Shown here: one piece after another, positions 5,477-25,762 of the stretch
How positions within the stretch are numbered: position 1 is the first letter of the stretch
Layout: the number at the start of each line of letters is the position of its first letter
DNA from: a virus
Lineage: Duplodnaviria > Caudoviricetes
DNA length: 64,000 nucleotides
Virus record (IMG/VR): IMGVR_UViG_2775507133_000001
Coordinates: 1 to 64,000 of that record
Strand: one strand, 5' to 3'
Position numbers and translations under genes: made by a program
Notes under the pieces: model-generated
Told to the model about the DNA's origin: nothing
The model's input: the letters and a program-made list of their open reading frames with translations, nothing else
Database searches by the model: none

Positions 5477-5498
5477 GCCAGGCCCTGAACCATGCGGC
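5477..5498 (-). promoter_or_regulatory. Late-gene leader motif copy 1
   Basis: GCCGCATGGTTCAGGGCCTGGC upstream of the gene starting at 5452. Confidence 0.7.
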
Positions 5499-5507
5499 AC
5501 GCTTAGC

Positions 5508-5822
5508 TTACGGTTCGTCTGCCGGGGTCACGGCCTCTTCGGGCGGGTGGTAGCCGGTGAGGCGGCTCGCCACCTCGTTGGTGATCCCAGGGAGGGCCCG
5601 CAGCATGTCGTAGGCGCCGTGCGCTTCCGCCTGTTCGGCTGCCTCCTGCTCTCGCGCCCGGCGTTGCTGCTCCGCGCGGTGCGCTGCCACGGCCCCGTCG
5701 AACTCCTCCTTCGTGATCTCCTGCACGCCTTCGTCCTCGTACAGCGGCGGCGTAAAGTTCACGCCTCCCAGCATCCGCACGGTGCCGTCGGGGTTGCGGT
5801 AGTACCGCTTCGTCTCCTCCAC
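5508..5822 (-). CDS. Hypothetical tail-associated protein
   Basis: 104-aa ORF with AAGGAG RBS in the tail operon. Confidence 0.65.
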   Translation of the reverse strand: MEETKRYYRNPDGTVRMLGGVNFTPPLYEDEGVQEITKEEFDGAVAAHRAEQQRRAREQEAAEQAEAHGAYDMLRALPGITNEVASRLTGYHPPEEAVTPADEP

Positions 5823-5834
5823 GGGGGCGACTCC

Positions 5835-6668
5835 TTAGTTCGGCAGCGAGAAGACCCACGCCCGCTGATACGACTGGATCTGCGAGTAGGTGGCGCCGCC
5901 CGAGCCGCGGCCCATGGTGACGTTGAGCAGGAAGTTGACCGAGTCGCCCGCGGGGATCACCGCGCGCAGCATTCGCCCGGTCTGAGTGTGCGTCGCCGTG
6001 ATCGCGCTGCTGCCTCGGTTCGCCGAGTACCAGGTGTCGTCGGTGCTGATTCCGTACATAGCGCCCGAGTTGGCCGGCAGGTTGATCTCGACGTCCAGCT
6101 CCTGCCACACCATCGCCATCGCCGGACGGCACGGGTCGACGTTCGGCAGGACGAGTGTGTAGCCGACCACGACCGTCTCCGATGCAGGCACGGCCACGTT
6201 GTTGTACGTCTGGCTGAAGATGGCCTCGTAGTAGTTCATGCGTGGCATCGGGTCGCCCCGCAGCCGCCCGTTCGCGTCGCTGTACACGCCGCCCGCCTGC
6301 GCGTCCACGTCGCACGGGAACGGCCACTCCATCGTGTTGGCCTCGACCGGGTTCGAGGCCGACCCATTACCGACCAGCCCGCGGCCGGCCGTGATCGTCG
6401 CGGACCCCGTCGGCACGAACAGGCCGTCCGACCGGACCGCAAGATTATTGCCCGCAGCGCTGGACACCTCGACGGCTATCTCGCCCGTCGCCGGGTCGTA
6501 CGCGATACCGTCACCGGCCGACAGGCACTCGCGGACCTCGTCGCAGTTCGTCACCGCGCTCACCGTGAACGGCGCGAGCGCGGAGCCCGTCCCGGTCACC
6601 GTCGCGTTCTCCCCGGCCTGCACCACGCACTGGCAGTCGCCGCTTCCGCCGCACTGGCACCTCGCCAT
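5835..6668 (-). CDS. Minor tail/fibre protein, Cys-rich N-terminus
   Basis: Position after the Gly-rich tail protein; beta-rich C-terminal domain. Confidence 0.65.
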   Translation of the reverse strand: MARCQCGGSGDCQCVVQAGENATVTGTGSALAPFTVSAVTNCDEVRECLSAGDGIAYDPATGEIAVEVSSAAGNNLAVRSDGLFVPTGSATITAGRGLVGNGSASNPVEANTMEWPFPCDVDAQAGGVYSDANGRLRGDPMPRMNYYEAIFSQTYNNVAVPASETVVVGYTLVLPNVDPCRPAMAMVWQELDVEINLPANSGAMYGISTDDTWYSANRGSSAITATHTQTGRMLRAVIPAGDSVNFLLNVTMGRGSGGATYSQIQSYQRAWVFSLPN

Positions 6669-6680
6669 GACCCGACCCCC

Positions 6681-7403
6681 TCAGCCGTAGAGCTCGACGA
6701 TGACGATGCCGCTGCCGCCGGGCTGACCGGTCTGCGGCGAAGCGTTGATGGACACGGCGCCGCCCGCGCCCGCCCCGTACCCGGTCGGCGGCTGCCCGGG
6801 CCCGCTCGTGCGACGCTCCTCACCGCCGCGGCCGAGGACAGAGTCGCCGCCGCGCCCGGACACGCACTGGCCTGCGCTGAGCCGGATCGAGGCGCCGCTG
6901 GCCCCGCCGCCGATGATGATGTCGCCGGTGCCGGACGATGAGCCGGCCGGGCCGCGCGCGGTCTCCAGCGCTGTCCCGGACAGCATGTTCGCGGGCCCGC
7001 CGTCGCCGCCATCTGCGGACACCAGCCCGCCGAAGCTTGATGTGCCGCCTGGGCCGCCGGCGTTGTTGTCCTGGCCGCCTATCCCGCCCTTGCCGACGAC
7101 GACGGCTTCCGCCGTGCCGAGCGCGCTCACCTCGATGAGGGACTGCGCCCACGCCCCCGCAGGGGCGCCCGGGCGGGCGATCAGCTCACCCGCATCCGAG
7201 AAGGCGCCCGCCGACCCTCCGCCGCCGCCCTGGCACTGCACCCGCACCCGGGCCAGCCATGGGTAGGACGCCTTCGTGAAGCTGTACGTGCCCGGCTTGT
7301 CGTAGTAGAGGACCTTCCTCAGGCCGAGCGAGCCAGGGATGATCGACAACTCTCCATTGTCGGTGAGCTGGAAGTACGTGCCATCGGCACACGATCTCGC
7401 CAC
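6681..7403 (-). CDS. Glycine-rich tail fibre-like protein
   Basis: QGGGGGS...GAGGA...GGSGIVIVELY Gly-rich phage domain. Confidence 0.75.
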   Translation of the reverse strand: MARSCADGTYFQLTDNGELSIIPGSLGLRKVLYYDKPGTYSFTKASYPWLARVRVQCQGGGGGSAGAFSDAGELIARPGAPAGAWAQSLIEVSALGTAEAVVVGKGGIGGQDNNAGGPGGTSSFGGLVSADGGDGGPANMLSGTALETARGPAGSSSGTGDIIIGGGASGASIRLSAGQCVSGRGGDSVLGRGGEERRTSGPGQPPTGYGAGAGGAVSINASPQTGQPGGSGIVIVELYG

Positions 7404-7428
7404 GGGACCTCACATGCTCGATTCCGTA

Positions 7429-7450
7429 GCCAGGCCCTCAACCATCCAGC
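7429..7450 (-). promoter_or_regulatory. Late-gene leader motif copy 2
   Basis: GCTGGATGGTTGAGGGCCTGGC upstream of 7403. Confidence 0.7.
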
Positions 7451-7475
7451 TCCGACACCAGGGTAGCCACGCCGG

Positions 7476-7952
7476 TCAGGCGATCGTGCCGACCGCCGTC
7501 ACATGCACCTTCACCCCAGAGCCTGCCGGTACGGCCGTCTGCCCGCCCGTCGCGACCGTGGTGGACTGCCACACCCTCATGGTGGCCTGCGTGGTGCTAA
7601 CCGCCTCCAGCGTCACCCACGCCGCGCGCACGTCGGCGGGGTCCGGGTCGACGACGAGAGCGCCGATCACCGGCGGCTGCGTGAACGGCTGCTGATACAC
7701 CCACGTGACGCGGCCGTCTGCCGAGGTGCTGATGATGCTCGCCGCTGGGGGCCCGCCGGGCGCACCGGGCGGCCCGGGCTCGCCGGGCGGGCCCGGCACT
7801 CCCTGAACGCCTTGAGGGCCCTGCTCGCCGCGGGGGCCGCGCTCGCCCTGGCGGCCGCGCGGCCCCGGCTGCCGCGCGGCGCGCTCGGTCTCCCGCAGCA
7901 CCCCCGCCAGCGGGTTGTCGGGGATCAGCCGCATCGCCGGCCTGCTCGCCAT
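7476..7952 (-). CDS. Minor tail protein with short collagen-like repeat
   Basis: ATG overlapping the upstream TAA; Gly-X-Y run. Confidence 0.7.
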   Translation of the reverse strand: MASRPAMRLIPDNPLAGVLRETERAARQPGPRGRQGERGPRGEQGPQGVQGVPGPPGEPGPPGAPGGPPAASIISTSADGRVTWVYQQPFTQPPVIGALVVDPDPADVRAAWVTLEAVSTTQATMRVWQSTTVATGGQTAVPAGSGVKVHVTAVGTIA

Positions 7953-8983
7953 TACACGTCCTCCACGTTCGAACCGACTGGACCGACCTGGACCTTCACC
8001 GACTCGCCGTCGCCGTCGGCCTCCACCGACAGGCCGGTCAGCTTCATGCGCTGCGCGATGTTCCGGCACGTCGCGGTGGTCGCCACATCCACACACCAGC
8101 CCGGCACCAGGTGGGCGATGTCCACGTCGGCGTCCGGTGACAGCGTGACCTCCGAGGTGTCGATGTAGACCGGCACCTGCAACGACGACGCCAGCCGCGC
8201 AGCCGCGGAGGCGTCCGCCGACGCCTGGTCGGTGATGGTGGAGTCCTGCACGGACCGCTCGATCAGCCCGTAGTACGGGTCGACGCCGCCGGCCACACCG
8301 ATGATCCCCGAGCCTTCCTCGCCGTACACGTACCACTTCGTGACGACCGCGGTGCCGTCCTCGGCGACGCTCAGCCCATCGGGCAGGTCCGCGTCCGTGA
8401 TCGTGCCGACGCTCGCTGACCAGTCGTCCGGCATGAGCAGCAGCTTCTCCCCGTATGCGGTGAAATCCAAGCCGGTGTCGGCGAGATCGCGAAGCTTGTC
8501 ACCGGACTGCCCGATGCCCTGCGTGTACGAGCGGGACACCCGGATCCCCGACTTCGCGAGGACCTGCACGCTGTGGCCCGGGTCGTCCGGGAAGAAGCCG
8601 TCCTCGATGAGCCACTCGGCGATGTCGGTCAAATCGGTGTCCGTGAACGACTTAGGCTCGTGCGGGGAGCGCCGGTTGAGGACCGAAACGATGTCGGCGG
8701 CCGACACGGTCACCGTGCCGACCCCCCACGTCGGCTGGATGATCTGCCCGCCCCACACGTACTGCTCGTTGCGGAACACGTGCAGCCAGTGCCTCATGCC
8801 GCGCATCTGCCCGAGCTTCCCGCAGCAGTCCATGTCGGGCTGGATCGTCACGACGGCGGTCGACGCGTCGTTGAGGATGCGCCCCCACCGCACCCGGGTA
8901 AGGGTCTCCGCCTGCGCGAGGATCGACCCGCCCCGGTCGGCGATGAACGCCGTGTACTCGGCTGCACACCCGAGCCCCGCCAC
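7952..8983 (-). CDS. Minor tail protein (baseplate hub/Tal-like)
   Basis: Second gene after the tape measure; WGGQI and YYGLIE-type patterns of actinophage minor tail proteins. Confidence 0.7.
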   Translation of the reverse strand: MAGLGCAAEYTAFIADRGGSILAQAETLTRVRWGRILNDASTAVVTIQPDMDCCGKLGQMRGMRHWLHVFRNEQYVWGGQIIQPTWGVGTVTVSAADIVSVLNRRSPHEPKSFTDTDLTDIAEWLIEDGFFPDDPGHSVQVLAKSGIRVSRSYTQGIGQSGDKLRDLADTGLDFTAYGEKLLLMPDDWSASVGTITDADLPDGLSVAEDGTAVVTKWYVYGEEGSGIIGVAGGVDPYYGLIERSVQDSTITDQASADASAAARLASSLQVPVYIDTSEVTLSPDADVDIAHLVPGWCVDVATTATCRNIAQRMKLTGLSVEADGDGESVKVQVGPVGSNVEDV

Positions 8984-8985
8984 GG

Positions 8986-10314
8986 CTACAGCACCTTCCC
9001 AGCGACGGCGAACTGCACCCGCGCGTCCGGCGCGGGCGGCAGGATGCCGTCGCTCTCCAGCAGCAGGCAGTACTCCGCGCAGCCGAGGACCGGCCAGGAC
9101 GGCGGCGCCCCGTCCCGCCCGAACACCGAGCCAGCCGACTGGCAGACGCCGCCGCAGTACACCACCGCGCGGCCCGTCTGCCCGTCAAGGACGAGTTCCG
9201 ACCCGGCCGCCAGGAACGCGACCGTCCACTGCGCGTACGGCTCGCAGCGGTGCTTCTCGGCGACCTCGGCACACGTCAGGCCGGCGTCGACCGCGGTCCG
9301 CTCGTACAGGGTGATCGTCAACCTGCGCAGGTCGCTGCTTCCCGCGTACACGCCGATGACCGGCACGTCGTCGATCAGTCCGGGCCGACTGCTCAGGTCC
9401 AGCGCGTACGCGGCGTCGTTGACGGCGATCGCGTTGCAGAAGCACGTCACCGGCCCCGATGGGACCGGCGGCGCGGCGGGCGCGCACGCCGGATCAGCGC
9501 AGCCGTCCCCGGCCTCCACACACTTCGCGAGGCGGCACCCCGTGCAGGGGGCGCCGCCCGGCGGATGAATGCACCAGTCGACGCACGTCCCGTCGAGGTC
9601 GCCGGGCACCAGCACATCGAGCAGCTCCACCTGGTCCATGTACGCGAACGGGCTCGCGGCGGTGAGCGTGAACTCCACCTGGATGATGTCGGCGCCCATC
9701 TCGCAGGCGCCGCCCGCGCAGTTCCCGCCCCCGTTGCGGGCCGTCACCCGCGGCCCCTTCGTGAGCGCCACCCGCCGGAACGAGCGGCGGTGCTGGGCGT
9801 TGAACTCGTCCCGGGTCATCGTCCCGCCCGGGCAGCACGCGTACATCTCCACGCAGTCGCCGCCGCACTGCGAGCCGGTGCAGCCCTGCAACGCCGACTT
9901 GAGCCACTGGTACCCGTACTCGACGCCGCAGCAGGTCGCGCCGAGCAGTAGCGCCGTGAACGTCATCGCGCGGGGCTGCACCCGGGCGGGGCCGATGGCG
10001 CCGCCGCCGGTGACGGCGGTGCTGACCGACCGCTCCACCGGGTAGTCGTCGACCCCGTCGACGCTCAGCAGCAGTACCCCGGCGAACTCGTCGCTCTCCG
10101 GGGCGTCCGGGTCCCACCACGGCGCCGGCGTGTCCGGGTCGTCGGGCGTCGTGTACGGCAGCCCGTCCGGGTCGAGGACCGCCGCGGTGAGTGCCTCGCA
10201 CGAGCAGATCTCCGATCCGGAGTCCAGCGGCGACCCGACCGTCTGCAAGTACTGCCTGAGGCGGGCGTGGTTGACGACCTCCACGCCGCCCACCGTCACG
10301 TAGTCGACCAGCAC
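8986..10314 (-). CDS. Distal tail (Dit-like) minor tail protein, Cys-rich
   Basis: First gene after the tape measure; QVEFTLTAASPFAY Dit-like motif. Confidence 0.7.
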   Translation of the reverse strand: MLVDYVTVGGVEVVNHARLRQYLQTVGSPLDSGSEICSCEALTAAVLDPDGLPYTTPDDPDTPAPWWDPDAPESDEFAGVLLLSVDGVDDYPVERSVSTAVTGGGAIGPARVQPRAMTFTALLLGATCCGVEYGYQWLKSALQGCTGSQCGGDCVEMYACCPGGTMTRDEFNAQHRRSFRRVALTKGPRVTARNGGGNCAGGACEMGADIIQVEFTLTAASPFAYMDQVELLDVLVPGDLDGTCVDWCIHPPGGAPCTGCRLAKCVEAGDGCADPACAPAAPPVPSGPVTCFCNAIAVNDAAYALDLSSRPGLIDDVPVIGVYAGSSDLRRLTITLYERTAVDAGLTCAEVAEKHRCEPYAQWTVAFLAAGSELVLDGQTGRAVVYCGGVCQSAGSVFGRDGAPPSWPVLGCAEYCLLLESDGILPPAPDARVQFAVAGKVL

Positions 10315-10323
10315 TCCAACTCC

Positions 10324-13300: not shown

Positions 13301-14529
13301 ACCTGCCCGCCGAACGCCTGCGCCACCGCCGCCGCGACGTCCAAGAACCCCTTGGCGAGCGGCTGGACCACCACCTGCAACCCGGACGCGGCCTGCGTCG
13401 TGCTCTGAATGATCGTCCGCAGCGGGGCGAGGGCCTCCTTCGACGCCGCGAACTTCAAGCCCTGGCTGGCGGCCTTCCCGAACTCGCCCGCGAGCCCGGA
13501 CAGCTGGGTCCGCAGCGGCAGCAGGTTCTTGATCGACGCCGTGACGTCGCCCGCGAATTGGCGGAAGAACGACTGCTGCACGGACTGCTGCAACCGCTTC
13601 AGCTGCGGCTGGAGCTGGTGGACCGCGGTGACGGCCTGCCGCGCCGCGGGGGCGAGGTTCTTCACCGCTTCGGTGAAGTCCTTCGCGTCGCTCTGGACGG
13701 CGGCTTCCAGGGCGTCGCCGACGCCGAGCGTGGCCAGCTTGAGCGTGCCCATCGCCGCGGCGGCACCGGCGATCGCGGCGGGGATCGCGGCGATGATTCC
13801 GCCGGCCGGTGCCAGCGCCGCGAGCAGCGCGCCGACGCCCTGGGCGGCCCCGGCAGCGGCGATCCCGACCGCGCCGAGCTTGAGGAGCCCGGCGAGCTGC
13901 GAGCCGACCCGCCCGGCGATCCCGCCCAGCCCGGCCAGGGACCGCCCCAGCCGTCCGGTGTCGACGTCGGCGGTCACGTTGACGTCGGGCGCACGGTGGG
14001 CGCGGACCCGGTCGTCGAAGTCCCCGAAGTCGGGGACGACACGGATCGCGATCTCCTCGCCGGCGAGCGCGGCCCGCAGCCGGGCCATGAAGTCGCTGAC
14101 GTCGGGCGCCACCGGGATGTTCAGCGAGTCGATGCTGCGCAGTCCGGTCAGCAGCGCCGAGTCGAACCGGCGCAGGTCCGGCACCACGGGGATCTCAATG
14201 GCGTCGATGTGGCCGAGGCGGGTCAGCAACATCGAGTCGAACCGGCGCAGGTCCGGCACCACGGGGATCTCAATGGCGTCGATGTGGCTGAGGCCGGTCA
14301 GCAACGCCGAGTCGAAGCGGCGCAGGTCCGGGTCCACCTGGATCTGCACCTTGACGCCGCGCAGGGCGTTCTGCAGATCGTTCTTGATCTTGTTGGCGAT
14401 GCCGCGCGTCGCCCGGTTCAGGGCGGCCTGGATCCGCTCACCGAGCGCCCGCGCATCGGTGACGACCCCGGTGTCATCGAGGTCGATGGTGATGTGAGCT
14501 GACCCGAAGTCCTCGTCTTCGCCGGCCAC
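10324..14529 (-). CDS. Tape measure protein
   Basis: 1401 aa, Ala/Gly/Leu-rich amphipathic repeats, two IxSPS motifs, follows the tail chaperones. Confidence 0.9.
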   Translation of the reverse strand: MAGEDEDFGSAHITIDLDDTGVVTDARALGERIQAALNRATRGIANKIKNDLQNALRGVKVQIQVDPDLRRFDSALLTGLSHIDAIEIPVVPDLRRFDSMLLTRLGHIDAIEIPVVPDLRRFDSALLTGLRSIDSLNIPVAPDVSDFMARLRAALAGEEIAIRVVPDFGDFDDRVRAHRAPDVNVTADVDTGRLGRSLAGLGGIAGRVGSQLAGLLKLGAVGIAAAGAAQGVGALLAALAPAGGIIAAIPAAIAGAAAAMGTLKLATLGVGDALEAAVQSDAKDFTEAVKNLAPAARQAVTAVHQLQPQLKRLQQSVQQSFFRQFAGDVTASIKNLLPLRTQLSGLAGEFGKAASQGLKFAASKEALAPLRTIIQSTTQAASGLQVVVQPLAKGFLDVAAAVAQAFGGQVGGTIAQLGAQLGTFLSGFAASGRAVEVVRTAVGVFQQLGSIAANVGAIIANVFRAADGAGGGLLNNLQEITGSFREFVASAAGQQAIGNLFGTVATIAAQLGPNLGALVTQIGAIAPALSPVFTALGPALVGVIDSLGPALAAIAPSLTTVAQALAAGLAQIDLAPLGESIAQVLTALSPLLPLAGQLVNVLAQALAPVLSTLAAAFGPIIEELVGALMPVLPPLTSAFVQLATSMAPIAAGIGDALAGVIARLAPLLPSLATSFGQLALALAPIAESLGQAVVDQLSALEPVLPQIAGAATELVAALVPLVGQIVDALLPVLPDLVGVFLQLTTAVLPVVPPVLQLATALAPLADLVIQLAAPLLQIGLGFQTWLAAKVAIPIIQGIATALGGLITGLTSVVTFITNLPSMIVSGLSMLGGLISTAFTSVVGFFQRLPGMILAALAALPGLLAQAFHLALVATGIAIGTGIGALILLFTRVPVMIYNGLASLGGFLVSRFSAALSAAASATSSGASTVAAFFQALPGRIAGFLAGLPARLGGIFRSAGSSMLGAARSAGSQVLGFFQALPGRIGSAMSSAGSVLAGVGMDLVRGLIGGIRSMAGAAADAARDVVGSAISAAKSVLKIGSPSKVFIEIGKWTGQGFVIGLTGTVDQIKQTTEKIAKLITQAFKGKNTRLDDRLLAVIADGNKRLVTLANQRDALAKRIADANKFATDTAASALQSFSLQNLTQGGDITREGLLGGLQDAVSQVKNFTAQIDALKRRGLRSDLLSQVIGLGPAQGAELASVLASQSSTTIAEINALQRQLVTASNALGQHAADSLFDAGKQASKGFLAGLKGQQKDIEKLMLDIAKAMQTSIRKALGIHSPSTVFRKIGDLTGLGLHVGIVGRLKDVTAAVRAQARGMADAVSGQLAALNTVVPGPVVQPTLGTLSGAGQPAGGRAGLAGGMTTVSNVGGATTNFNITVQAANDPEQTARAVIRQIATANLT
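14105..14335. repeat. Three ~75-bp tandem repeats in the tape measure N-terminus
   Basis: PDLRRFDSxLLTxLxxIDxxxIPV repeated three times, near-identical DNA with 75-bp period. Confidence 0.8.
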
Positions 14530-14555
14530 CAGGCAACCCCGCTCTCGCGTTGGTT

Positions 14556-14577
14556 GCCCGGCCCTGAACCAGTCAGC
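14556..14577 (-). promoter_or_regulatory. Late-gene leader motif copy 3
   Basis: GCTGACTGGTTCAGGGCCGGGC upstream of the tape measure gene. Confidence 0.7.
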
Positions 14578-14621
14578 TGGTGCTCGCCCCTCCCCCCGGA
14601 AGGGGCGACCACGTCATCAGA

Positions 14622-14963
14622 TTATCGGCCGCGTCCGCCCATGAGCTGCGCGTCCTCAGCGGCGAACGCCGCCAGCATCGCCTTCGCGTCGCCCACGCCC
14701 ATCGCCGCCGCTCTCGGGCGGGCCGGCTGCCCGGGCGCCGCCGGACGGGGCCGGTAGCCCTTCGGCGGCGCGTACAGCTCCGCCTTGATCCGCGCCCGCT
14801 CCGAGTCGTCCTTCGCGCCCTGGTACAGCTGCACCTCGGCCGCGTTCAGCATCCGCTTCAACGGCCACTGGTGCGGGTCTACGCCCTGGAGCGCGAGATG
14901 CCCGTCCCACGACTCCCACCAGGCCGCGACCTGGGCGCAGAGCCGGAAGACGACCCAGTAGGG
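14622..14963 (-). CDS. Tail assembly chaperone, second (gpT-like) segment, probably reached by -1 frameshift
   Basis: The -1 frame opens just after TAA at 14967-14969 and reads PYWVVFRLCAQVAAWWESWDG...; overlaps the chaperone 3' end. Confidence 0.6.
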   Translation of the reverse strand, partial: PYWVVFRLCAQVAAWWESWDGHLALQGVDPHQWPLKRMLNAAEVQLYQGAKDDSERARIKAELYAPPKGYRPRPAAPGQPARPRAAAMGVGDAKAMLAAFAAEDAQLMGGRGR

Positions 14964-15418: not shown

Positions 15419-15440
15419 GCCCGGCCCTCAACCAGTCAGC
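15419..15440 (-). promoter_or_regulatory. Late-gene leader motif copy 4
   Basis: GCTGACTGGTTGAGGGCCGGGC upstream of 15394. Confidence 0.7.
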
Positions 15441-15492
15441 GCACCAGGAAGGGTAGTCGCCCGCACGGCCCGCACAGGGCCTCACCAGCGGC

Positions 15493-17260: not shown

Positions 17261-17291
17261 TCAGCGCCTCCCGAAGTCGGTGTGACACGGC

Positions 17292-17323: not shown

Positions 17324-17347
17324 CAGGCCCGAGGGCGCCACCCGCGG

Positions 17348-18034
17348 TCAGGGCGTGGCCGGCACGGGTACGGGCACGTAGTCGCACGACGGGACCGGCG
17401 GGGCCACGTCGGTGATGAAGATGCGCCGGTGGCAGGTCGGCCCGAGCGGCGTAAGCATCGGACTCGGCGCCCCGCCGGCGTTGCGGGTGACGTTGTACGG
17501 GCCCGCGCCCCAGTTGCCGCCCGCCCGGGTTGCGCCGGTCACCTGAAGCGTGACCGCTTCGCCGCCGATCTCCATGTCGCCCAGCAACCCGTTGGTGATC
17601 CACGGCAGCACGAAGTAGATCCACTGCCCGGTGGACCCCTCGTCGCAGTCCTCGCCCAGCACCTCGGCCCAGAGCTCAAGCGCGAAGCCCGTCTTGCACT
17701 GAAGGGAGCAGGTGTCGGTACCGATGACCTCGCCGGACGCGTCCAGGTACACCGGGTTGCCGGTGAGCAACTCGATCAGCTCGGGAGACACCGCGAAAAA
17801 GTTGATCTCGACGTCGAATCCGCGGAAGGTCGGGCAGCCGCGTCGGTATCCGCACACCTTGCCGTTCGCGGCCTTGTACTCGATGTCGTCGCCGTCATCC
17901 ACGTTGTTGTTGAACGCGATCGAGCTGAAGCACTCGGCGACGAACGCGTTGTCGTTCCCCTGGACGGGGTTGCCGCATCGGTCGACGCGGGTCACGCGGA
18001 AAACGTCGGCCGTGGCGATCAGAGGACAGGACAC
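17348..18034 (-). CDS. Major tail protein
   Basis: RVTRVDRCG...KAANGKVC...FALELWA...YFVLPW actinophage tail-tube pattern. Confidence 0.75.
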   Translation of the reverse strand: MSCPLIATADVFRVTRVDRCGNPVQGNDNAFVAECFSSIAFNNNVDDGDDIEYKAANGKVCGYRRGCPTFRGFDVEINFFAVSPELIELLTGNPVYLDASGEVIGTDTCSLQCKTGFALELWAEVLGEDCDEGSTGQWIYFVLPWITNGLLGDMEIGGEAVTLQVTGATRAGGNWGAGPYNVTRNAGGAPSPMLTPLGPTCHRRIFITDVAPPVPSCDYVPVPVPATP

Positions 18035-18060
18035 GGGCCAGCTCCCTCATATTCAAAGGA

Positions 18061-18082
18061 GCCAGGCCCTAAACCATCCGGC
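18061..18082 (-). promoter_or_regulatory. Late-gene leader motif copy 5
   Basis: GCCGGATGGTTTAGGGCCTGGC with TAGACT -10-like box upstream. Confidence 0.75.
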
Positions 18083-18222
18083 GGTGAGTGAGTCTATCCG
18101 CCTGCGACCAGCGTCAAGGCGTCATCTTGTTGCAGGAGCCGAATCGTCGAGTCGCCCGGCTGCCGGGTGAGCGGCCGCCTCCGTACAGGTCATCTCGTGG
18201 CTGAGGTGGAAGGCATCACGTC

Positions 18223-19221: not shown

Positions 19222-19874
19222 CCCATGCGCTCAGGGAGCGTTGGGCAGGGCACGCGTGAAGATCCGAACCCCCGCGGATACGCGAGTGAGCCCCGGCCTC
19301 CCCGGTTCCGGGGCTCACGGCGTTCTCAGCGCCGTGGTATTCGAACACATCTTTGGCGCCGGTCGTGAGAACTAAGAACTGGCCGGACTGCGCTCAGCGA
19401 GCTCAACCCAGCCCGCGGCCAGCATCTGCCGCGCACCACTGCATCGGCTCAGACGAGATCGCCCGAGCCGGGCCATCGAGGAGCACACCCATCACACTTC
19501 CCGCACCGGCGGCGTAGGCCCGGTGCGGGGGCGCGTGCGCAGCCTTGAGGCTGTTACTCACTTTCGGGTGATAGCGAGGCAGGTTCCCCGGGTGGCGCGG
19601 ACTGGCGACCGCGGGACGAGCGCCTTGCCCGCACTGAGCAGGCCGACCTGCCGGACCGTCAACATCGTGCATACGGGACATACATGGAGAATGCAACTGA
19701 GAGTTACTGAAACATGAGCAGCAAGTAACAGTGCTCATGTTTTGCCCTTCATTCCTGCCCGACGTGGACAAAGTGTGTGTGCGGCCAACCGGTCGCAACC
19801 CACACACCGCACCACCTCCGGGCGGCCGTCACGGCCGTTGACCGGGGGGTGCCCGCACCCTTCAGGGGGACTTC

Positions 19875-20435
19875 TTGTCCGCTTCCGCTCTCGTCACCGG
19901 TCGCCGTCTCGCCGCTGCCGTCCTCGCAGCCGGCGCTCTCATCTCGGTGGCCGCGCTGCCGGCGTCCGCCGACGACCACTCCCGCGCGCCGCGCCACCGC
20001 GTGGAGATCTCGGCCGTCCAGTACAACTCCCCCGGCCCGGACGACCGCTCCAACCGCTCACTGAACAGGGAGTGGGTGGAGGTCACCAACACCGCCCGAC
20101 ACGGGATCAACCTCGACGGCTGGACCCTCGAGGACGAGGACGGCCACACCTACACCTTCAACGACTACCGCCTGGCCGGCCGCGCCACCGTCCGCATCCA
20201 CACCGGAGTCGGCCGCGACAACCGCACCGACCTCTACCAGGACCGCCGCAACTACGTGTGGGACAACCGCTCCGACACCGCCACCCTGCGCAACGACCAC
20301 GGCCGCTTCATCGACAAGGTCTCCTGGGGCTACGACCGCGACCGCGGCGACCGGGACAACCGCGGGGACCGGGGCGACCGCGGCAACCGCGGGGACTGGG
20401 ACGACCGCGGCAACCGCGGCGACAACCGCCGCTGA
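19875..20435 (+). CDS. Secreted lamin-tail-domain protein with RGD/RGN-rich tail
   Basis: Signal peptide; EWVEVTN...NLDGWTL...YVWDN..DTATLRN LTD pattern. Confidence 0.8.
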   Translation: MSASALVTGRRLAAAVLAAGALISVAALPASADDHSRAPRHRVEISAVQYNSPGPDDRSNRSLNREWVEVTNTARHGINLDGWTLEDEDGHTYTFNDYRLAGRATVRIHTGVGRDNRTDLYQDRRNYVWDNRSDTATLRNDHGRFIDKVSWGYDRDRGDRDNRGDRGDRGNRGDWDDRGNRGDNRR

Positions 20436-20656
20436 CACCACAACCGGGTACAGGCGGCATGCCGCCCGCACCCGGTGACCAAACTGCGGCGCGTCCGGCC
20501 CCTTAGGCCTGGCGCGCCGTCGTCACGACGGCTGGCACGGCGCCCCGTCAGGTGTTCGGGCGGCCCGGGTCCCGGCCGCCGTCCCCGCGACCAGGCGACC
20601 GCCGAGTGCGGCGACTTCGGGTGGTTCTCCTGCTTCCGCGAGCGGCCCCTTGGACT

Positions 20657-21337
20657 TCATCGGGCGAGGGTGACCGTGACCGGCACGTTGGAGCAGCGGC
20701 TCAGGATGTCCGTCAGGGCGGCCGCTTCTGCCTCGTCGGCGGACAGGCGCCAGCGGAGTTTGTCGGCGATCCAGTCGGTGGCGTACTGGCAGCGGTAGCC
20801 CTCGGCCGGGGGCATCCATGTGGTCGGGTCCTGGTCTGCCTTCGACCGGTTCGACGCGGCCGACACCGCGATCAGTGCGCGGTCGTCGCCCAAGTCGTTG
20901 GCGTACGCCTCGCGTTCGGCGGCCGACCACCTGGAGGCGCCAGAGTCCCAGGCCTCTGCAAGCGGGACCAGGTGGTCAATGTCCAGCCCGGTCGGGCCCT
21001 GGATGTAGCGGTCGTCGTACGGCGAGTACCACCGGCCACCGGTCAGGGCGCAGCGCGGCCCCTGCTCGGGTGAGATGACGGCCTCCGCCTTGAGGACCTC
21101 GGCGCGGGTGCTGCAGCCGTCCCGGTCCGCGTCGACCCAGTGCTTGAACGCCGAGCGCTCGTAGCCGGTGCGGTCCTCGCCGGCCACCAGGATCTGCGTC
21201 AGGGCCTCGCGCACGGGCAGGGTGATGCTCTGGCCGGGATCGCGGTGCGGGACGTGGGCCGGGGCGGCGTGGGCGGCGGCGGGCAGCAGTACGGCCGCGA
21301 GGGCGGCGGCGGCCGTGAAGGTACGGGCGAAGAGCAC
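20657..21337 (-). CDS. Secreted HNH nuclease (DUF1524-like)
   Basis: Signal peptide; GYERSAF..W...DIDHLVPLAEAWDSGA...ANDL...NRSK. Confidence 0.85.
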   Translation of the reverse strand: MLFARTFTAAAALAAVLLPAAAHAAPAHVPHRDPGQSITLPVREALTQILVAGEDRTGYERSAFKHWVDADRDGCSTRAEVLKAEAVISPEQGPRCALTGGRWYSPYDDRYIQGPTGLDIDHLVPLAEAWDSGASRWSAAEREAYANDLGDDRALIAVSAASNRSKADQDPTTWMPPAEGYRCQYATDWIADKLRWRLSADEAEAAALTDILSRCSNVPVTVTLAR

Positions 21338-21664
21338 GAGCGTGTCCTTCCGGAGATCACCGACTGGTCGGGATCTTCGTAGCTGCCCCGCACAGCGACC
21401 CGCCCGAAGACGGCAGCGCCTCTACCCGATCGAGGGGTAAGTGCGATGGTCGGCAAGGCGAAAGGGGTGCAGCGCATGGCGTGGGACATGGTGGTTGGTG
21501 ACGCCGCTGGGCACATGCCGGCTGTCGGTGCCGCACACATCGGTCCGACCGTCTGCAACCATCCTGGGCCACGGCATATGCCAAAGAGCTGGCCGAGCCG
21601 CCAACCGCCGTGAGCTGCTGCTTAACTGGAGAGGTAGAGAGCCGAGCGCGCCACCGGGGGGCCA

Positions 21665-22228
21665 GTGGAGAGATACCCGCTCGAATCGCCATATCCGCGC
21701 ACGATGACGACCTTGACGCGAGTTGCAGTACGTTTTACAGCAGAACTCGGAATTGGGGTCGGCCTTTCCATATTTTCACTATTTGCTTCGTCACCTATTC
21801 CGCCCGTAGCCACCGCCGTGGCAGGCACAATCTGCATCGCAAAGGGCCTAACCACAGTAGTCGACTACTATCTCCAGAAGTCGCTTAAAGCGGGGGTAGA
21901 CGAACTGCTGTCCATTGGGTTTGACGCCCCGGAGTCGATGCCCTGGGACGTTGAGCCGCGGCTGCCACGGGAGAGCAGTCAGGCGCGGGCCCTTGCGATT
22001 GCAGCAGAAGAAATTGAGCGGGAAGAGTGGGAATTCGCTCAAGAAATGCTGATCGACGATTCCCCGGTTGATGCCACACCGGAAGAGATTGTTCCCGCTG
22101 CCGCTGAGACCGTACAGGGGTTGACCCACATGTTCCTTGCTCTCGGCCCACCGGGCCAAGCAGCAGGCGACCAGCCACACAACACTGCGGGGCCGCACGG
22201 CGGTGTCGATCTGGGGCCGGGGGGCTGA
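21665..22228 (+). CDS. Lower-GC membrane protein (moron); start uncertain
   Basis: Two N-terminal hydrophobic helices, acidic tail; AT-richer codons than the flanks. Confidence 0.55.
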   Translation: MERYPLESPYPRTMTTLTRVAVRFTAELGIGVGLSIFSLFASSPIPPVATAVAGTICIAKGLTTVVDYYLQKSLKAGVDELLSIGFDAPESMPWDVEPRLPRESSQARALAIAAEEIEREEWEFAQEMLIDDSPVDATPEEIVPAAAETVQGLTHMFLALGPPGQAAGDQPHNTAGPHGGVDLGPGG

Positions 22229-22229
22229 G

Positions 22230-22616
22230 ATGGCGGATGAAATTCGAGCACCCGAAGAACTCGCCCTTTCCTATGCCAAGGAGTGGGCTCAGCTCCCTCC
22301 CGCCCATTTGCGTGTGGCACTGAAGCAACTAGAACCGATGATGGTGCGCCAGCATGAACTCATGGTCGCTCGCGATCGACGCCGCCACGTATTGGACATG
22401 ATCGCGCTGTGCGGAGGAACGCTCATTTCCGTCTGCTCCGTTGCTGCCGCTTTTTACTTCGGACTAGAGAACGATTACGTGATGGCAGGCATCATGGTGA
22501 GCCCTAGCGTTCTCGCCATGGCAAAGCTCTTGGTGCTCCGCCAAAGCGATGCAAAGGATTCACGGGCCGCTGGCGCCGCGCTTAACGCGGCAACCCAACT
22601 ACCGCCACCGCCGTAA
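22230..22616 (+). CDS. Lower-GC two-TM membrane protein (moron)
   Basis: ATG at 22230 directly after the upstream stop; helical N-terminus plus two TM segments. Confidence 0.65.
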   Translation: MADEIRAPEELALSYAKEWAQLPPAHLRVALKQLEPMMVRQHELMVARDRRRHVLDMIALCGGTLISVCSVAAAFYFGLENDYVMAGIMVSPSVLAMAKLLVLRQSDAKDSRAAGAALNAATQLPPPP

Positions 22617-22776
22617 CGGCTGCGACGGAAAGGCAATTCGAGACTTCGGAGCACCGCCCAGTTTGACGTGGTCCCCCAGCCTCGGGCGTGCCCGGCCACA
22701 GGCTGATATGCGGCGCCACGGGCGTAGCGCTCCACCGTGGTCCCGGCCCGACGGGTTCCGAGGCTGTGGGGCGGCG

Positions 22777-23142
22777 TCAGCTGCCCTGCCCAGGCGTCGT
22801 CTTGCGGCGCGCCCCGCGCGCGGGCGTGCGCCGCGCCCGTCCGCTCGCCTCAGCTTCGACACCCTCATCAGGCACAGGCGCTTCGTCGGCTCGCTGCACA
22901 GCCTCGGGTGTCTCGTCGCGGCTGGCGGTGTCAGGGGGCGAACCGAGCGCGTCGGATGGACGGTACGGCTGATCGTCGACCAGTGCACCGGCCAGCAGGT
23001 GCTCCGGGACGTCGGCGAACTGGTCCTCTGGCACACAGAACTGGTCGTGAGAGCACGTGTTCACGCGGGCGTCCTGACTGACCGCCCACCGCGCGAACTC
23101 GGTCCGCAAGGCGGAGGCCGGCTTCACCTTGATCAGCATCAC
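22777..23142 (-). CDS. Hypothetical head-module protein
   Basis: Coupled to the upstream gene; low-complexity C-terminus. Confidence 0.6.
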   Translation of the reverse strand: MMLIKVKPASALRTEFARWAVSQDARVNTCSHDQFCVPEDQFADVPEHLLAGALVDDQPYRPSDALGSPPDTASRDETPEAVQRADEAPVPDEGVEAEASGRARRTPARGARRKTTPGQGS

Positions 23143-23969
23143 GTCGAGATCCTCACTGCCGCCGCCTCACAGCACGCCGTCTCGATCACGGACGTGCGCT
23201 CGGCCAGGACATAACGGTCGTTCAGGCGAGTGTCGATGGACTGCGCCTCGGTGGTCGGGTTGATGTCGAGCGGCCCCCGTCGCACCCGCACTGGGCCGGT
23301 CACGTACAACCACAGCTCGCCAGCGGGCGCTTGCGTGCAGGTTGCACCCCCCACGTTCGCGGCGTAACCGGCGCCGAAGACGACGCCGTTGCCCATCAGC
23401 GTCTGGGGGCAACCAGTGCTGGAGGTAGGAGCGGTGACGACGTTGCAGCAGCCGAGCAGGGCCGCCGCCCCCGCCGGCACGTGGAGAAGCCCCTTGCCTC
23501 CGTACTGCTCGGCGAGCCAGCCTTCCAGCACCGCGATGCCTTGGGCGACCTGGAGGGGGCCCGCCGCGGGGGTGAGGTCGTTGCTGGCGGCCATGGTGCA
23601 CAGCGCGTTCACCATGAAGTGCTCCTCCAGAGCGCGCTGCTCGCCCATGCGGAGCGTTTCCGTGGCGTGGGCGACCGCCTCGTCCTGGGTCATGCCGAAC
23701 GTGGAGCAGGTGGCGCCGGCGTACACGGTCACCGGGTCGAACTCGCACAGCCCGGGCCGGTCGAACGTCTTGCTCGCCGGGTTGGGGGTGGGGGGAGGCG
23801 GGCAGTCCCGCTGCCAGGTGTGCGCTGCGGTGCACGACAGCGGCACCATCTGCGTCCCGTTCAGCTCGTGCAGATCGTCGGCGTCGATGACGTCGACGCA
23901 CCTGCCCAGGAGACCGAAAGGACTGGGAGTGCCGCGGATTGCGCTCACGGTCTTGGAGAGCCCTGCCAT
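23139..23969 (-). CDS. Minor capsid/decoration-like protein following the major capsid
   Basis: Position; QTLMGNGVVFGAGY...LYVTGPV...NDRYVLAERT pattern. Confidence 0.65.
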   Translation of the reverse strand: MAGLSKTVSAIRGTPSPFGLLGRCVDVIDADDLHELNGTQMVPLSCTAAHTWQRDCPPPPTPNPASKTFDRPGLCEFDPVTVYAGATCSTFGMTQDEAVAHATETLRMGEQRALEEHFMVNALCTMAASNDLTPAAGPLQVAQGIAVLEGWLAEQYGGKGLLHVPAGAAALLGCCNVVTAPTSSTGCPQTLMGNGVVFGAGYAANVGGATCTQAPAGELWLYVTGPVRVRRGPLDINPTTEAQSIDTRLNDRYVLAERTSVIETACCEAAAVRIST

Positions 23970-24043
23970 CTGCCTCACGTCCTCTCAGTGCGCCGGCAGC
24001 CCCGGCCGGGCAGAGGCCCGGGGCTGCGATCGGAGCGGCTTGG

Positions 24044-25714
24044 TCAGGCGGTCGGGCAGACGGGGGTCTTGCGCGGGCCGACGGAGCCGTCGGCGCACAC
24101 CGGGATCGTGACGCGGCGCGCCTCGGGACCGCGGTAGATGAGCGCGTTGCACGACTCGAACCACAGCGCCGTGTGGTCGTTCGTTGCCATCAGGGTGCTG
24201 TCGTGGACGACGCCGAGGTTGACCTCGGGGCCACGGCCCATCTGGAAAGCGCCGGCCGGGTACAGCAGCACCTCGATGGTGTCCGGCCAGTCCGTGGCCG
24301 GCGTGACGGCACCGATCTGCGTGGGCACCGCGGGCGGGATGTTCTTCACCCAGTTCACGCGGACGCCGATCTCGGCGAACTTGTCCTCGATGCAGCGGGC
24401 GGGCAGGTCACAGATCTGCGAGCCGCTCCTGCGCGCGATGTCGGCGAGGAACATGTTCCTGGCCCACCACGGCATCGCCACTTCCAGGTTAATGCGGTCG
24501 CACAGGTGCCACCGCTCGACCATGTCGGCGACCTGGAGGGCGAGCGCGCCGTACACGGCGGTGAAGCTGGCGAAGCTCGGCGCGGTGGTGACGGGGGTGG
24601 CCTTCGCGCGGGCCTGCGCGTACATGGCGCCCTTGAGGCGCATCTCGTAGGCGACCATCGCGCGCCGGATGTAGAAGGTGTTCAGCTCCGGGAAGAACCG
24701 CTGGCTGAGGATGCCGGACTGCACGCAGACGCCGTACGCGGTGCAGCGCACCTCGACCGGGTCGACGCACGGGATCTTGAAGCAGGGCTTCGTCGGGTCT
24801 CCGTCGACGGCGCTGATGTCGTCGGCCTCGGTCCACTCCCACGACATCGCGTTGATGTCGAGCTCCGGCGTCATGTAGTAGCGCAGCCCGCCCCGGGACA
24901 GGGACACCTCCGGGAGGTCCCACAGGTTGTCCGGGCACGAGTACTCGACGAAGTCGTAGATCGTTTCGCTGGGCGCACACCATCCGCCGCTCGCGACGAG
25001 GTCACCGCCCTTGAGGCGCCGCTGGTCGGAGGCGGTGAGCACCGTCATGGTGCCTTCCTCGACCGAGCCGGCGTCGTTGACGATGAGGTCCTTCGCGAAC
25101 GGCAGCTGGTAGCTGGCCGCGAGGGCCTTCCCGCCGTTCGCGACGAGGCCGGCGACGCGCGTCACGGACTCGGTGAGCCCGTCCATGTCGAGGGTGGAGC
25201 CGAGCGTCGACCCGGGCACCTCCGCCGACGCGGTGATCGTGATACCGGTGCCGCCGTTGCGGGGAACGATCTGCCGCGGCGCGTGCTGCCGCACCAGGCC
25301 GAGGGACAGCCGCGGCTTCGGCACCACGACACCCGCCGAGGCCGTGACCGGCTCCTCGCCGCCCGGCTCGGCGGCGGGGTCCTCATCGCCGGCCGGGGGC
25401 TCCACGGTGGTGTCGGTGTCGGCGGCGAGCTGCTGCGGCGCGGCGGGGGCGTGGTCGTCGAGGCCGATCTCCGCCGCGAGCGTGTCGAGTTCGGCGAGGG
25501 CGTCCTGCACCTGCGACAGCCGCGCCGTCCGCTCGGCCTCCATCGCCTTGATGCCGGCCGCGAGGGCGCGCACGGCGGGCATGGACTCCAGGTCCAGGTC
25601 GGGGTTGGTGCGCATCGCCTGGAACGCCTCGCGCGCCGCCGCGATCTGCGTGTCCAGGTCCTCGGCGGACAGGGTGGCGATGTCGTCCGGCAGCTCGTAC
25701 GGCTGGTCGGCCAT
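24044..25714 (-). CDS. Major capsid protein with N-terminal scaffold-like extension
   Basis: 556 aa; coiled-coil N-terminus; LVASGGWCAPSETIYD motif; AGGAG RBS; hairpin after the stop. Confidence 0.85.
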   Translation of the reverse strand: MADQPYELPDDIATLSAEDLDTQIAAAREAFQAMRTNPDLDLESMPAVRALAAGIKAMEAERTARLSQVQDALAELDTLAAEIGLDDHAPAAPQQLAADTDTTVEPPAGDEDPAAEPGGEEPVTASAGVVVPKPRLSLGLVRQHAPRQIVPRNGGTGITITASAEVPGSTLGSTLDMDGLTESVTRVAGLVANGGKALAASYQLPFAKDLIVNDAGSVEEGTMTVLTASDQRRLKGGDLVASGGWCAPSETIYDFVEYSCPDNLWDLPEVSLSRGGLRYYMTPELDINAMSWEWTEADDISAVDGDPTKPCFKIPCVDPVEVRCTAYGVCVQSGILSQRFFPELNTFYIRRAMVAYEMRLKGAMYAQARAKATPVTTAPSFASFTAVYGALALQVADMVERWHLCDRINLEVAMPWWARNMFLADIARRSGSQICDLPARCIEDKFAEIGVRVNWVKNIPPAVPTQIGAVTPATDWPDTIEVLLYPAGAFQMGRGPEVNLGVVHDSTLMATNDHTALWFESCNALIYRGPEARRVTIPVCADGSVGPRKTPVCPTA

Positions 25715-25740
25715 GAGTGACTCCTGTGTGATTCGCAGGA

Positions 25741-25762
25741 GCCAGGCCCTAAACCATCCGGC
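25741..25762 (-). promoter_or_regulatory. Late-gene leader motif copy 6
   Basis: Identical to copy 5; TAATAT -10-like box upstream. Confidence 0.75.

Follow-up and report, generated by a model that had tools for sequence, protein, structure and literature searches.

The window analysed here, a 64,000-nucleotide stretch of phage DNA, carries one 22-nt motif again and again shortly before the start codons of its late genes, which raises the question of whether the motif is a site in the DNA or a part of the message, and what it would do there. The consensus GCYGNMTGGTTNAGGGCCKGGC has six zero-mismatch matches in the window, all on the late-gene strand (Table 1), and a seventh match with 3 mismatches on the opposite strand. 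Each of the six copies ends 24-26 nt before a start codon, and the genes served are the six named in the original prediction: the major capsid gene (phrog_777), the major tail protein gene (phrog_792), a gene in the tail-chaperone position that is homologous to TurkishDelight gp26 (annotated as a tail assembly chaperone), the tape measure gene, a fibre gene carrying Gly_rich_2, and a 78-aa Cys-rich ORF that lies directly 5' of an Amidase_2 endolysin once the coding frames are resolved.

In shuffled sequence 0.06 matches occur on average, and none of 100 shuffles reached seven; the consensus was built from the same six copies, so this is not the strongest test, and three stronger ones were used. 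The whole 8.36-Mb host genome holds zero further matches at 0-1 mismatch, and its 31 matches at 2-3 mismatches (six of them the window copies themselves) equal the control level of 31 for the reversed pattern. The sixth copy (5473-5502), which was outside the training set of covariance model R2, scores 28.9 bits with it, while the next window match scores 17.5. Thirdly, the motif is kept in relatives. Four other genome matches were rejected on inspection as chance-like and inside coding-like sequence, and with model R1, which describes the one-base-bulge class, the two-base-bulge copies of the window score 20-26 bits, the level of the whole-genome background.

Table 1. Hairpin copies (P1), Shine-Dalgarno-burying helices (P2) and TANNNT boxes in the window; bit scores are those of model R2.
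Feature	Position	Strand	Remarks
P1, major capsid leader	25741..25762	-	Exact consensus match; 34.6 bits; start codon at 25714, 26 nt downstream
P1, major tail protein leader	18061..18082	-	Exact match; 34.1 bits; at start-codon spacing
P1, tail-chaperone-position gene leader	15419..15440	-	Exact match; 36.1 bits; at start-codon spacing
P1, tape measure leader	14556..14577	-	Exact match; 33.0 bits; at start-codon spacing
P1, Gly-rich fibre leader	7429..7450	-	Exact match; 33.5 bits; at start-codon spacing
P1, leader of 78-aa Cys-rich ORF and endolysin cassette	5477..5498	-	Exact match; 28.9 bits; not in training set
P2, major capsid leader	25712..25744	-	Motif positions 19-22 and the next bases pair with CAGGAGUCA (Shine-Dalgarno)
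P2, major tail protein leader	18032..18064	-	GGCUCCUUU/GAGGGAGCU and GGGCC/GGCCC
P2, tape measure leader	14527..14562	-	The GUG start codon is buried as well as the Shine-Dalgarno sequence
TAATAT box	25772..25777	-	Probable -10 of the putative capsid promoter; 9 nt upstream of P1
TAGACT box	18091..18096	-	Probable -10; 8 nt upstream of P1
TACCCT box	15450..15455	-	Probable -10; 9 nt upstream of P1
TAATCT box	14619..14624	-	Overlaps the TAA stop of ORF 14622-14861; 41 nt upstream of tape-measure P1
TACCCT box	7460..7465	-	Probable -10; 9 nt upstream of P1
TAAGCT box	5505..5510	-	Overlaps the TAA stop of ORF 5508-5822; 6 nt upstream of P1

Homologous leaders could be gathered into a family with compensatory changes. 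With the covariance model, the window and 14 related Streptomyces prophage loci together yielded 60 copies, phage TurkishDelight has 8-9 further copies, and cluster BG phages and Clawz, a Gordonia phage, have variant forms; YDN12 has the variant form only, and the variant copies of locus L046 were caught by regular expression alone. There are 4-9 sites per phage, some of them in relatives as tandem copies, and the matched core lies 24-35 nt from the start codon for every copy that adjoins one. In the BG phages the element is restricted to the capsid and tail-tube genes and in Clawz to the capsid gene, although other late genes there have promoter boxes. Seven loci with capsid homologues (L012, L013, L047, L049, L050, L051 and L052) gave no model match at E <= 1; PG1 (cluster B1) shows a loose resemblance upstream of its capsid gene, with no R2 match there at E <= 0.05. 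A class-level sample of 150 genomes from 102 genera gave just 3 weak single matches, and the late region had no megablast match among 50,697 phage records. When the window proteins were compared by tblastn with TurkishDelight, YDN12, Clawz and PG1, only virion-module genes were common to several, the exceptions being a DAM-like/GNAT protein and one small ORF (Clawz alone) and a few singles. Rfam 15 has no gathering-score match anywhere in the window and, between 4000 and 27000 and up to E = 10, gave unrelated weak matches only, none at a motif; the literature searched holds no description of the element. By sequence comparison, the family appears to be widespread among a group of Streptomyces phages and previously undescribed.

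The fold originally proposed for the motif, here P1, holds in all seven pairs (1-22, 2-21, 3-20, 6-19, 8-18, 9-17 and 10-16), which make a single hairpin of 21-22 nt. In order, it consists of an outer stem of 3 bp, a bulged G(N), one further pair, a bulged U and an inner stem of 3 bp (GGU/GCC), closed by the loop UNNGG. Positions 6 and 19 are indeed A/T in four window copies and C/G in two. Across the 60 homologous copies, in an alignment that the covariance model had fitted to the P1 structure itself, 99.5% of 411 cells pair, against 18-46% in slid controls. Compensatory changes affect four of the seven pairs (GC/AU, CG/UA/AU and CG/AU) in 21 cells, a count that overstates the independent events because many copies are related by descent, with variation otherwise modest; the observed pairing and covariation values were reached by 0 of 500 shuffles. 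Outer stems differ yet stay complementary even within single phages (GACUGC/GAGUC and GCCGC/GGGC, for example), and a recognisable 2-nt mismatch of the outer stem is present in only one of the 60 copies. All 60 lie on the gene strand, and the wobble pairs are U·G without exception (15+1+58), never A·C, which indicates that P1 acts as sense-strand RNA. The covariation is far stronger than the one pair in six copies from which the original prediction was made, and these comparisons support a structured RNA element in the 5' leaders. P1 alone is weak, at -2 to -5.5 kcal/mol; its unpaired bases, of which about 10 are conserved, are invariant. A protein may bind the hairpin, as was also predicted.

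All six TANNNT boxes lie upstream of the motif as listed in the original prediction, at 8-9 nt in four cases, 6 nt in one and 41 nt in the tape measure leader. Family-wide, a TANNNT box ends 10-20 nt before TGG in 44 of the 60 copies, compared with 0.5% of random positions. In 14 copies the nearest TANNNT is 27-68 nt upstream, and two more have no box within 70 nt; the 14 have extra sequence (hairpins or a tandem copy) 5' of P1, and in none does it separate P1 from the Shine-Dalgarno sequence. A two-hexamer sigma-70 promoter scan of 5000-24999 found 0 sites, and the idea that the motif is itself a promoter, with a -10 following it, was rejected since the leaders inspected, by eye and with no statistic, have no conserved hexamer 17 nt after TGGTT. 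In most copies transcription would start a few nt before P1, from -10-only (TANNNT) promoters. The window tape-measure copy may instead be internal to a polycistronic mRNA, because its TAATCT box, 41 nt away, overlaps the upstream stop codon and a GC hairpin lies between box and P1; tape-measure leaders of relatives have TAGTCT where the window has TAATCT.

The 3' strand of the P1 outer stem (KGGC) can also pair further downstream, as the 5' strand of another helix, P2. The opposite strand of P2 holds the Shine-Dalgarno sequence, and that of tape-measure leaders takes in the start codon as well; because both helices need the KGGC strand, P1 and P2 are mutually exclusive. In the capsid leader the minimum free energy (MFE) structure of the full leader uses P2, not P1 (-29.4 kcal/mol, against -13.1 with P1 enforced), and the sub-leader MFE is -13.9 kcal/mol with y1-y5 paired; the major tail leader behaves alike (-31.8 against -10.6, sub-leader -12.5). 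For the tape measure, the RNAalifold consensus of 11 leaders gives a P2 with 95.7% of cells paired and 3 compensatory pairs, and the window copy reaches -18.9 kcal/mol; on MAFFT alignments of tail-tube leaders RNAalifold was uninformative, the P2 region being misaligned. The 3' region of a leader pairs better with its own y-region (mean -12.8 kcal/mol) than with those of other leaders (-9.8), a difference reached in 0 of 5000 permutations, and about 38-44 of the 54 leaders have y2-y4 paired. Variants at y2/y4 are matched in P1 throughout (A with U 7/7, U with A 5/5) and in P2 in most cases (AU 4/7, UA 4/5).

P2 strength depends on the gene, from strong (tape measure) through intermediate (capsid, tail tube) to weak (chaperone). 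Among the window leaders, those of the chaperone, fibre and lysis genes have a P2 that is weak or formed without the P1 strand (-4.8 to -6.7 kcal/mol), and a switch between the two helices therefore cannot be the whole function of P1. Furthermore, the upstream copy of a tandem pair in relatives is unable to compete with P2.

The reading preferred here, held at somewhat less than even confidence, is that P1 and P2 form a leader switch which tunes late translation together with a conserved partner. P1 would lie in the 5' leaders of late messages, a few nt past a -10-only start and 24-35 nt before the start codon; with P1 formed the ribosome-binding site would be free, and with P2 formed it would be buried. 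As P1 is weak alone (about -5 kcal/mol) yet strictly conserved, it needs either action at the time of transcription or a partner, and it would act co-transcriptionally or be held by a partner that reads the invariant unpaired bases. Overall, the element would both set and raise the level at which the late virion and lysis proteins are translated. We infer the transcription start sites, the switching behaviour, the direction of the effect and the existence of the partner, which is probably host machinery, given that the phages carrying P1 have only virion genes in common; when about 60 window ORFs were scanned with Pfam and PHROGs, no RNA-binding candidate for a phage-encoded partner came up. 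Pairing of the core with host 16S rRNA was rejected, as the best duplex (-22.8 kcal/mol) does not differ from the shuffled mean (-22.9) and the 3' tail alone is no better.

A leader switch has a precedent in the Com/mom system of phage Mu, where the translation start of a late gene is buried in a stem-loop whose formation depends on an RNA site next to it on the upstream side. The likeness lies in a leader stem that hides start signals, upstream RNA that decides and the lateness of the genes; the differences are that there are 4-9 sites per phage here against one site and a known zinc-finger activator in Mu, that the P1 sequence is unrelated and that the competing strands here overlap directly. 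Riboswitches combine an expression platform with an aptamer whose conserved pocket binds a ligand; the P1/P2 alternation resembles such a platform, and P1, with 7 pairs and about 10 conserved unpaired bases, is smaller than any known aptamer. The start-associated sequences (SAS) of cluster K mycobacteriophages are 13-bp GGGATAGGAGCCC units that include the Shine-Dalgarno sequence and lie 3-7 bp before the start codons of non-structural genes only, and the ESAS is a 17-bp inverted repeat whose variation, according to its authors, does not support RNA pairing; a role in translation initiation is suspected for them (PMC3203893). P1 is like SAS/ESAS a multi-copy, single-orientation gene-start repeat in actinobacteriophages that is absent from the host, and membership was rejected because P1 has another sequence, lies 24-26 nt upstream, serves structural and lysis genes and covaries (PMC3203893).

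A related possibility, which we regard as doubtful, is that P1 is the RNA part of a portable, self-contained late-expression cassette that acts directly on conserved host machinery, be it RNA polymerase or the 30S subunit, and needs no regulator encoded by the phage. Its order would be a -10-only promoter, P1 and a tunable ribosome-binding-site helix. If true, this would be a new class of actinobacterial phage cis-acting RNA that moves with the virion module, and the module would travel between phages with unrelated regulatory regions.

Phage RNAs that act on the polymerase itself are known. The lambda nut site consists of boxA and, next to it, boxB, a hairpin with a purine-rich pentaloop, and works with N, an arginine-rich protein that the phage encodes. 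The put RNAs of HK022, two neighbouring stem-loops that span about 70 nt, need no protein for their action on RNA polymerase. It is unlikely, in our estimate, that P1 works in this manner, as a miniature put-like RNA or a nut-like site with a protein, on host RNA polymerase during transcription, such that polymerase from late promoters would resist pausing and termination across a long hairpin-rich operon and P2 would be a separate, later and gene-specific translation brake. Such a role would fit the retention of P1 in leaders where P2 outcompetes it, as P1 would act before the 3' arm of P2 is made, and also the probable promoter before most copies, the tandem copies, the strong P2 in the tape-measure unit, which heads about 10 kb of tail genes with little of its own protein needed, and the sharing of virion genes only, since an RNA for host polymerase needs no phage-specific factor. 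Like nut and put, P1 is a short cis-acting RNA just past a probable phage promoter with covarying stems and conserved unpaired bases. However, those sites belong to early operons, two per genome, with no fixed relation to a start codon, whereas P1 belongs to late operons, is always 24-35 nt before a start codon and has a strand in common with the Shine-Dalgarno-burying helix; antitermination does not require such a constant distance, nor that inserts lie upstream only. Membership among the put RNAs was rejected as a single 21-22 nt hairpin of 7 pairs is far smaller than they are, and canonical U-tract terminators in the late region number 3 against a shuffle mean of 4.8. The P1 hairpin, with the loop UNNGG and a bulged G and U, is unlike boxB. 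Nothing N-like or Q-like turned up among the window proteins in the Pfam and PHROGs scans, although N-like proteins are short and easily missed.

It is less probable still that P1 is a 5'-terminal hairpin protecting the message from 5'-end-dependent decay by RNase J or RNase E and so raising the yield of abundant virion proteins. The box spacing seen in 44 of the 60 copies, which predicts a start 0-3 nt before the first paired base, is consistent with this, as is the association with capsid and tail-tube genes in the BG phages and likewise in Clawz. Any stable stem would suffice for protection, however, and P1 is weak, loses to P2 in the leaders of the capsid, tail-tube and tape-measure genes and has invariant unpaired bases; moreover, the 14 copies with a distant box keep P1 though another hairpin or P1 would occupy the 5' end, and the window tape-measure copy may be internal to its mRNA.

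Stoperators are double-stranded DNA sites for an immunity repressor and are specific to the immunity group, and a DNA site of that kind just downstream of the -10, or the late-activator site offered in the original prediction, is very improbable: the many asymmetric copies in one orientation to transcription, at about +1 to +25 where repressors commonly bind, do resemble the layout of cluster A mycobacteriophage stoperators, but a double-stranded DNA site read base by base would conserve the bases of its half-sites and not their complementarity, and here the outer-stem bases vary within one phage with complementarity kept, G·U occurs without A·C, bulges break the dyad symmetry, the box distance varies from 6 to 68 nt, and the core is conserved across phages with unrelated non-structural and regulatory genes, which is unexpected for immunity-specific sites.

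The control of late genes in phages of Streptomyces and other actinobacteria is poorly understood, and the element is a concrete handle on it: a 22-nt hairpin, solidly supported by comparison, is present in each probable late promoter-leader unit of the window and is linked through shared bases to the ribosome-binding site. It is a candidate for a new Rfam family and might be of use in compact, tunable expression leaders for Streptomyces engineering. Furthermore, a leader switch could explain how one virion module gives very different yields, of capsid and tape measure for instance, from similar promoters, and how that module stays functional when it is recombined with unrelated early regions.

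The leader element described here is a real, conserved and previously uncatalogued RNA family of Streptomyces-type siphophages, and beyond the 22-nt bulged hairpin of seven pairs already proposed (P1), folding adds a predicted second, competing helix (P2) that shares the 3' strand of P1. All six late-gene copies of the original prediction were recovered in place as zero-mismatch consensus matches on the minus strand, against a chance expectation of 0.06, a count reached in 0/100 shuffles. No match at 0-1 mismatch was found in the remainder of the 8.36-Mb genome, and genome-wide matches at 2-3 mismatches occurred only at the level of a reversed control pattern. The claimed placement also held: every copy ends 24-26 nt 5' of a start codon (about 25 nt had been proposed) and lies downstream of a TANNNT box, the probable -10 of late promoters, which is 6-9 nt upstream in five copies and 41 nt upstream in the tape-measure copy, where a GC hairpin lies between box and motif. 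Within the late-region intergenic gaps compared (<=160 nt or the gap length per gap), TANNNT boxes were shown only beside the motif, the tape-measure and lysis boxes, both of which overlap the TAA stop of the preceding ORF, falling outside those stretches.

The window (G000:C5:78241-142240) is a prophage within this genome (71% G+C), and nearly all of its genes are on the minus strand. Its capsid protein is 45-51% identical to those of the Streptomyces phages YDN12, TP1604, Xkcd426, Mischief19, phiSAJS1 and TurkishDelight and ~30% identical to many Gordonia, Microbacterium and Mycobacterium phage capsids. At 4251-5452 (-) the automatically called 395-aa ORF is over-extended; by GC3 the first coding frame there is a 78-aa Cys-rich ORF, which aligns with the N-terminus of far longer tailspike-like proteins of relatives and whose TGA stop overlaps the endolysin start, an ATG near 5216. 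The tape measure gene contains three tandem 75-nt repeats (14101-14345, 79-81% identical), and an insertion at 18223-21337, between the tail-tube gene and the capsid-adjacent genes of the late operon, encodes on the opposite strand an ATP-dependent DNA ligase and a lamin-tail-domain protein, together with a GmrSD_C nuclease-domain protein, all probable morons or defence genes.

Coordinates of late genes, other repeats and tandem P1 pairs (window positions unless a relative's locus is named)
Feature	Position	Strand	Remark
Large terminase, portal, MuF-fusion protein, minor tail proteins			late region
Major capsid protein	24044-25714		late region
Major tail protein	17348-18034		late region
Chaperone-position gene	14879-15394		late region
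Tape measure	10324-14529		late region
Gly-rich fibre	6681-7403		late region
78-aa Cys-rich ORF	5216-5452		followed by Amidase_2 endolysin
~105-nt AT-rich units	ends 45184, 48863, 54594, 55977, 56875, 58397, 59647, 62256, 63944	-	
37-nt GC-rich palindromic units	42849-42885, 43874-43910, 44819-44855		
Tandem P1 pairs	16868/16909 and 19426/19459		locus L037
Tandem P1 pairs	7876/7832, and 3460 with a neighbour		locus L053
Tandem P1 pairs	18509/18548 and 22899/22925		locus L062

Two other repeat families occur in the window. The larger comprises nine AT-rich units with an inverted repeat (45147-63984), which adjoin early genes (ParB and others) on their upstream side; since the ATG of the unit opens only a tiny ORF, and that in some copies, it resembles a promoter/operator-leader cassette for early genes and is distinct from the late motif. 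The three palindromic units (84-95% identical) separate early or middle genes and resemble terminators that lack a U tract. Elsewhere, a C-5 cytosine DNA methylase at 45260-48145 (-) is split by an intein (Hint_2, LAGLIDADG_3 and Intein_splicing matches).

Capsid loci of relatives were collected by a protein search of 401 genomes (21 with a match), plus two closer loci, and the capsid-gene upstream regions of about 20 Streptomyces prophages share the core CTGCTGGTTNNGGGCCGRG, always 3' of a TANNNT box and 25-35 nt 5' of the start codon. A loose regular expression identified 58 convincing copies, 4-8 per phage, in late operons of up to 20 kb taken from 18 loci; the genes downstream encode capsid, tail tube, chaperone, tape measure, fibre or minor tail proteins, or a product beginning MA(R/S)C.C. 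A covariance model with the proposed fold, built from 34 copies of the commonest form (R1), returned 60 copies (E <= 0.2) from the window together with 14 loci, all on the strand of the capsid gene of that locus. A second model rebuilt from these 60 copies (R2) gave exactly six matches in the window (28.9-36.1 bits; next-best 17.5), the sixth copy having been absent from its training. There was no R1 match at E <= 1 in L012, L013, L047, L049, L050, L051 or L052 (capsid identity 27-35%), and L046 has variant copies only. Single leaders of related phages can also hold tandem P1 pairs, 30-45 nt apart.

Among isolated phages, the temperate TurkishDelight carries nine copies by R1 and eight by R2 (E <= 0.05), preceding the capsid, tail tube (tandem pair), chaperone, tape measure (tandem pair), two minor tail genes and the tailspike. 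The lytic phages of cluster BG have a variant core, TGGCGTTAGGCC, ahead of the capsid and tail-tube genes only, the variant being the sole form in YDN12, and many other BG late genes have TANNNT boxes without the motif. The Gordonia phage Clawz has a single copy 5' of its capsid gene, 13 nt downstream of the box (GACGCCCC...TTACAGT), and variants of this box precede four further late genes without the motif. A DAM-like and phage-GNAT fusion protein (window 37351-38802 (-) and L063 ~13134-14549) is 48% identical to a Clawz protein; apart from it, the genes common to Clawz and the window phage are those of the virion and a single small ORF. Of 150 sampled Streptomyces genomes, eight had matches at E <= 0.001, three of them with 4-9 matches each, mostly clustered in one contig region, while 150 genomes from 102 genera of the class gave three weak single matches only.

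The proposed fold stands: standard pairs fill 409/411 cells of the 60-copy alignment, which was fitted to the structure by the model and in which many copies are kin by descent and the three inner pairs hardly vary. Changes on both sides occur in four of the seven pairs (21 cells: GC to AU, CG to UA, CG to UA or AU, and CG to AU), and 0/500 shuffles equalled the alignment in pairing or covariation score. With the partners displaced by 1-3 columns, only 18-46% of cells pair. The pair singled out as covarying, 6/19, is C-G in 52 rows and A-U in seven without exception, A-U occurring in the clade of this window and, separately, in L042. Wobbles are all sense-strand U·G (74 cells), with no A·C pairs, and RNAalifold on an independent MAFFT alignment of 14 capsid leaders returned P1 with four covarying pairs.

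In 44/60 copies a TANNNT box ends 10-20 nt before the TGG of the P1 core, an arrangement found at 0.5% of randomly chosen positions in these loci; given the spacing typical between a -10 box and its start point, transcription would begin 0-3 nt ahead of the first P1 base to be paired. Of the remaining 16 copies, 14 have the box 27-68 nt upstream, with a GC hairpin or a second P1 copy occupying the extra space, and two have no TANNNT box within 70 nt. No copy has extra sequence beyond the P2 loop in the interval from P1 to the ribosome-binding region. Upstream of the capsid gene in L016, L017, L020, L021, L022 and L023, a conserved CTTGACA is followed by a ~29-31-nt hairpin and then the TANNNT box, a spacing that exceeds the standard -35/-10.

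The four 3' closing bases of P1 (KGGC; GAGUC or GUGUC in capsid leaders) and those following complement the stretch before the start codon that holds the Shine-Dalgarno sequence. Pairing averaged -12.8 kcal/mol within a leader versus -9.8 kcal/mol with the stretches of other leaders (0/5000 permutations; n=54 after dropping three upstream tandem members, one wrong start call and two divergent copies). When these leaders were folded from the first closing base to the start codon, the second to fourth bases of this strand (y2-y4) were paired in 38-44/54; variants at y2 and y4 were matched in P1 in 7/7 and 5/5 cases and in P2 in 4/7 and 4/5, the others being unpaired or G·U. In 11 tape-measure leaders RNAalifold returned a 10-pair helix that includes the inner-stem GCC and the GUG start codon, with 95.7% of cells paired (slid controls ~40%) and compensatory change at three pairs. 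P2 strength falls from tape-measure leaders (strong, -18 to -22 kcal/mol) through capsid and tail-tube leaders (intermediate, -12 to -17 kcal/mol) to chaperone leaders and the window's own fibre and lysis leaders, where the helix is weak or absent (-4.8 to -6.7 kcal/mol). P1 alone reaches -2 to -5.5 kcal/mol in the window, where P2-type folds of the capsid, tail-tube and tape-measure leaders reach -29 to -33 kcal/mol versus -11 to -16 kcal/mol with P1 enforced; P1 and P2 are mutually exclusive.

Literature searches found no published description of the element, none of the papers searched mentions TurkishDelight, and no Rfam family matches the element, as the check proposed with the fold showed. 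The nearest described actinobacteriophage phenomenon is the start-associated sequence (SAS) of cluster K phages (PMC3203893), which has another sequence, another position and another class of genes; the authors of that account describe its inverted repeats as lacking RNA-type covariation.

A leader switch controlling translation through P1 and P2 is the tentatively favoured reading, because P1 keeps a fixed distance from the start codon and shares a strand with the helix burying the Shine-Dalgarno sequence, and the strengths of P2 are opposite to expected protein demand. P1 is strictly conserved, invariant bulges and loop included, yet weak, and would therefore act transiently while the RNA is transcribed, or when held by a partner. 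Complementarity of the core to 16S rRNA was no better than that of shuffles, and such pairing was rejected. Mu Com/mom, lambda nut and HK022 put resemble the element in logic, and a put/nut-like action of P1 on RNA polymerase is doubtful; service as a 5' stabiliser is unlikely. That the motif is a DNA site is highly improbable, since outer stems differ within one phage while staying complementary (GACUGC...GAGUC at the capsid versus GCYGC...GGGC elsewhere), and one protein could not be reading those bases in double-stranded DNA. Something else takes the remaining probability. As for the partner, phages carrying P1 have only virion-module genes in common, their early and regulatory genes being unrelated, and the lytic BG phages retain the element on the two virion proteins that they make in greatest amount. 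This makes both control by a phage-specific regulator and a function in prophage silencing unlikely, and the partner is more likely to be a conserved host component or a virion-module protein.
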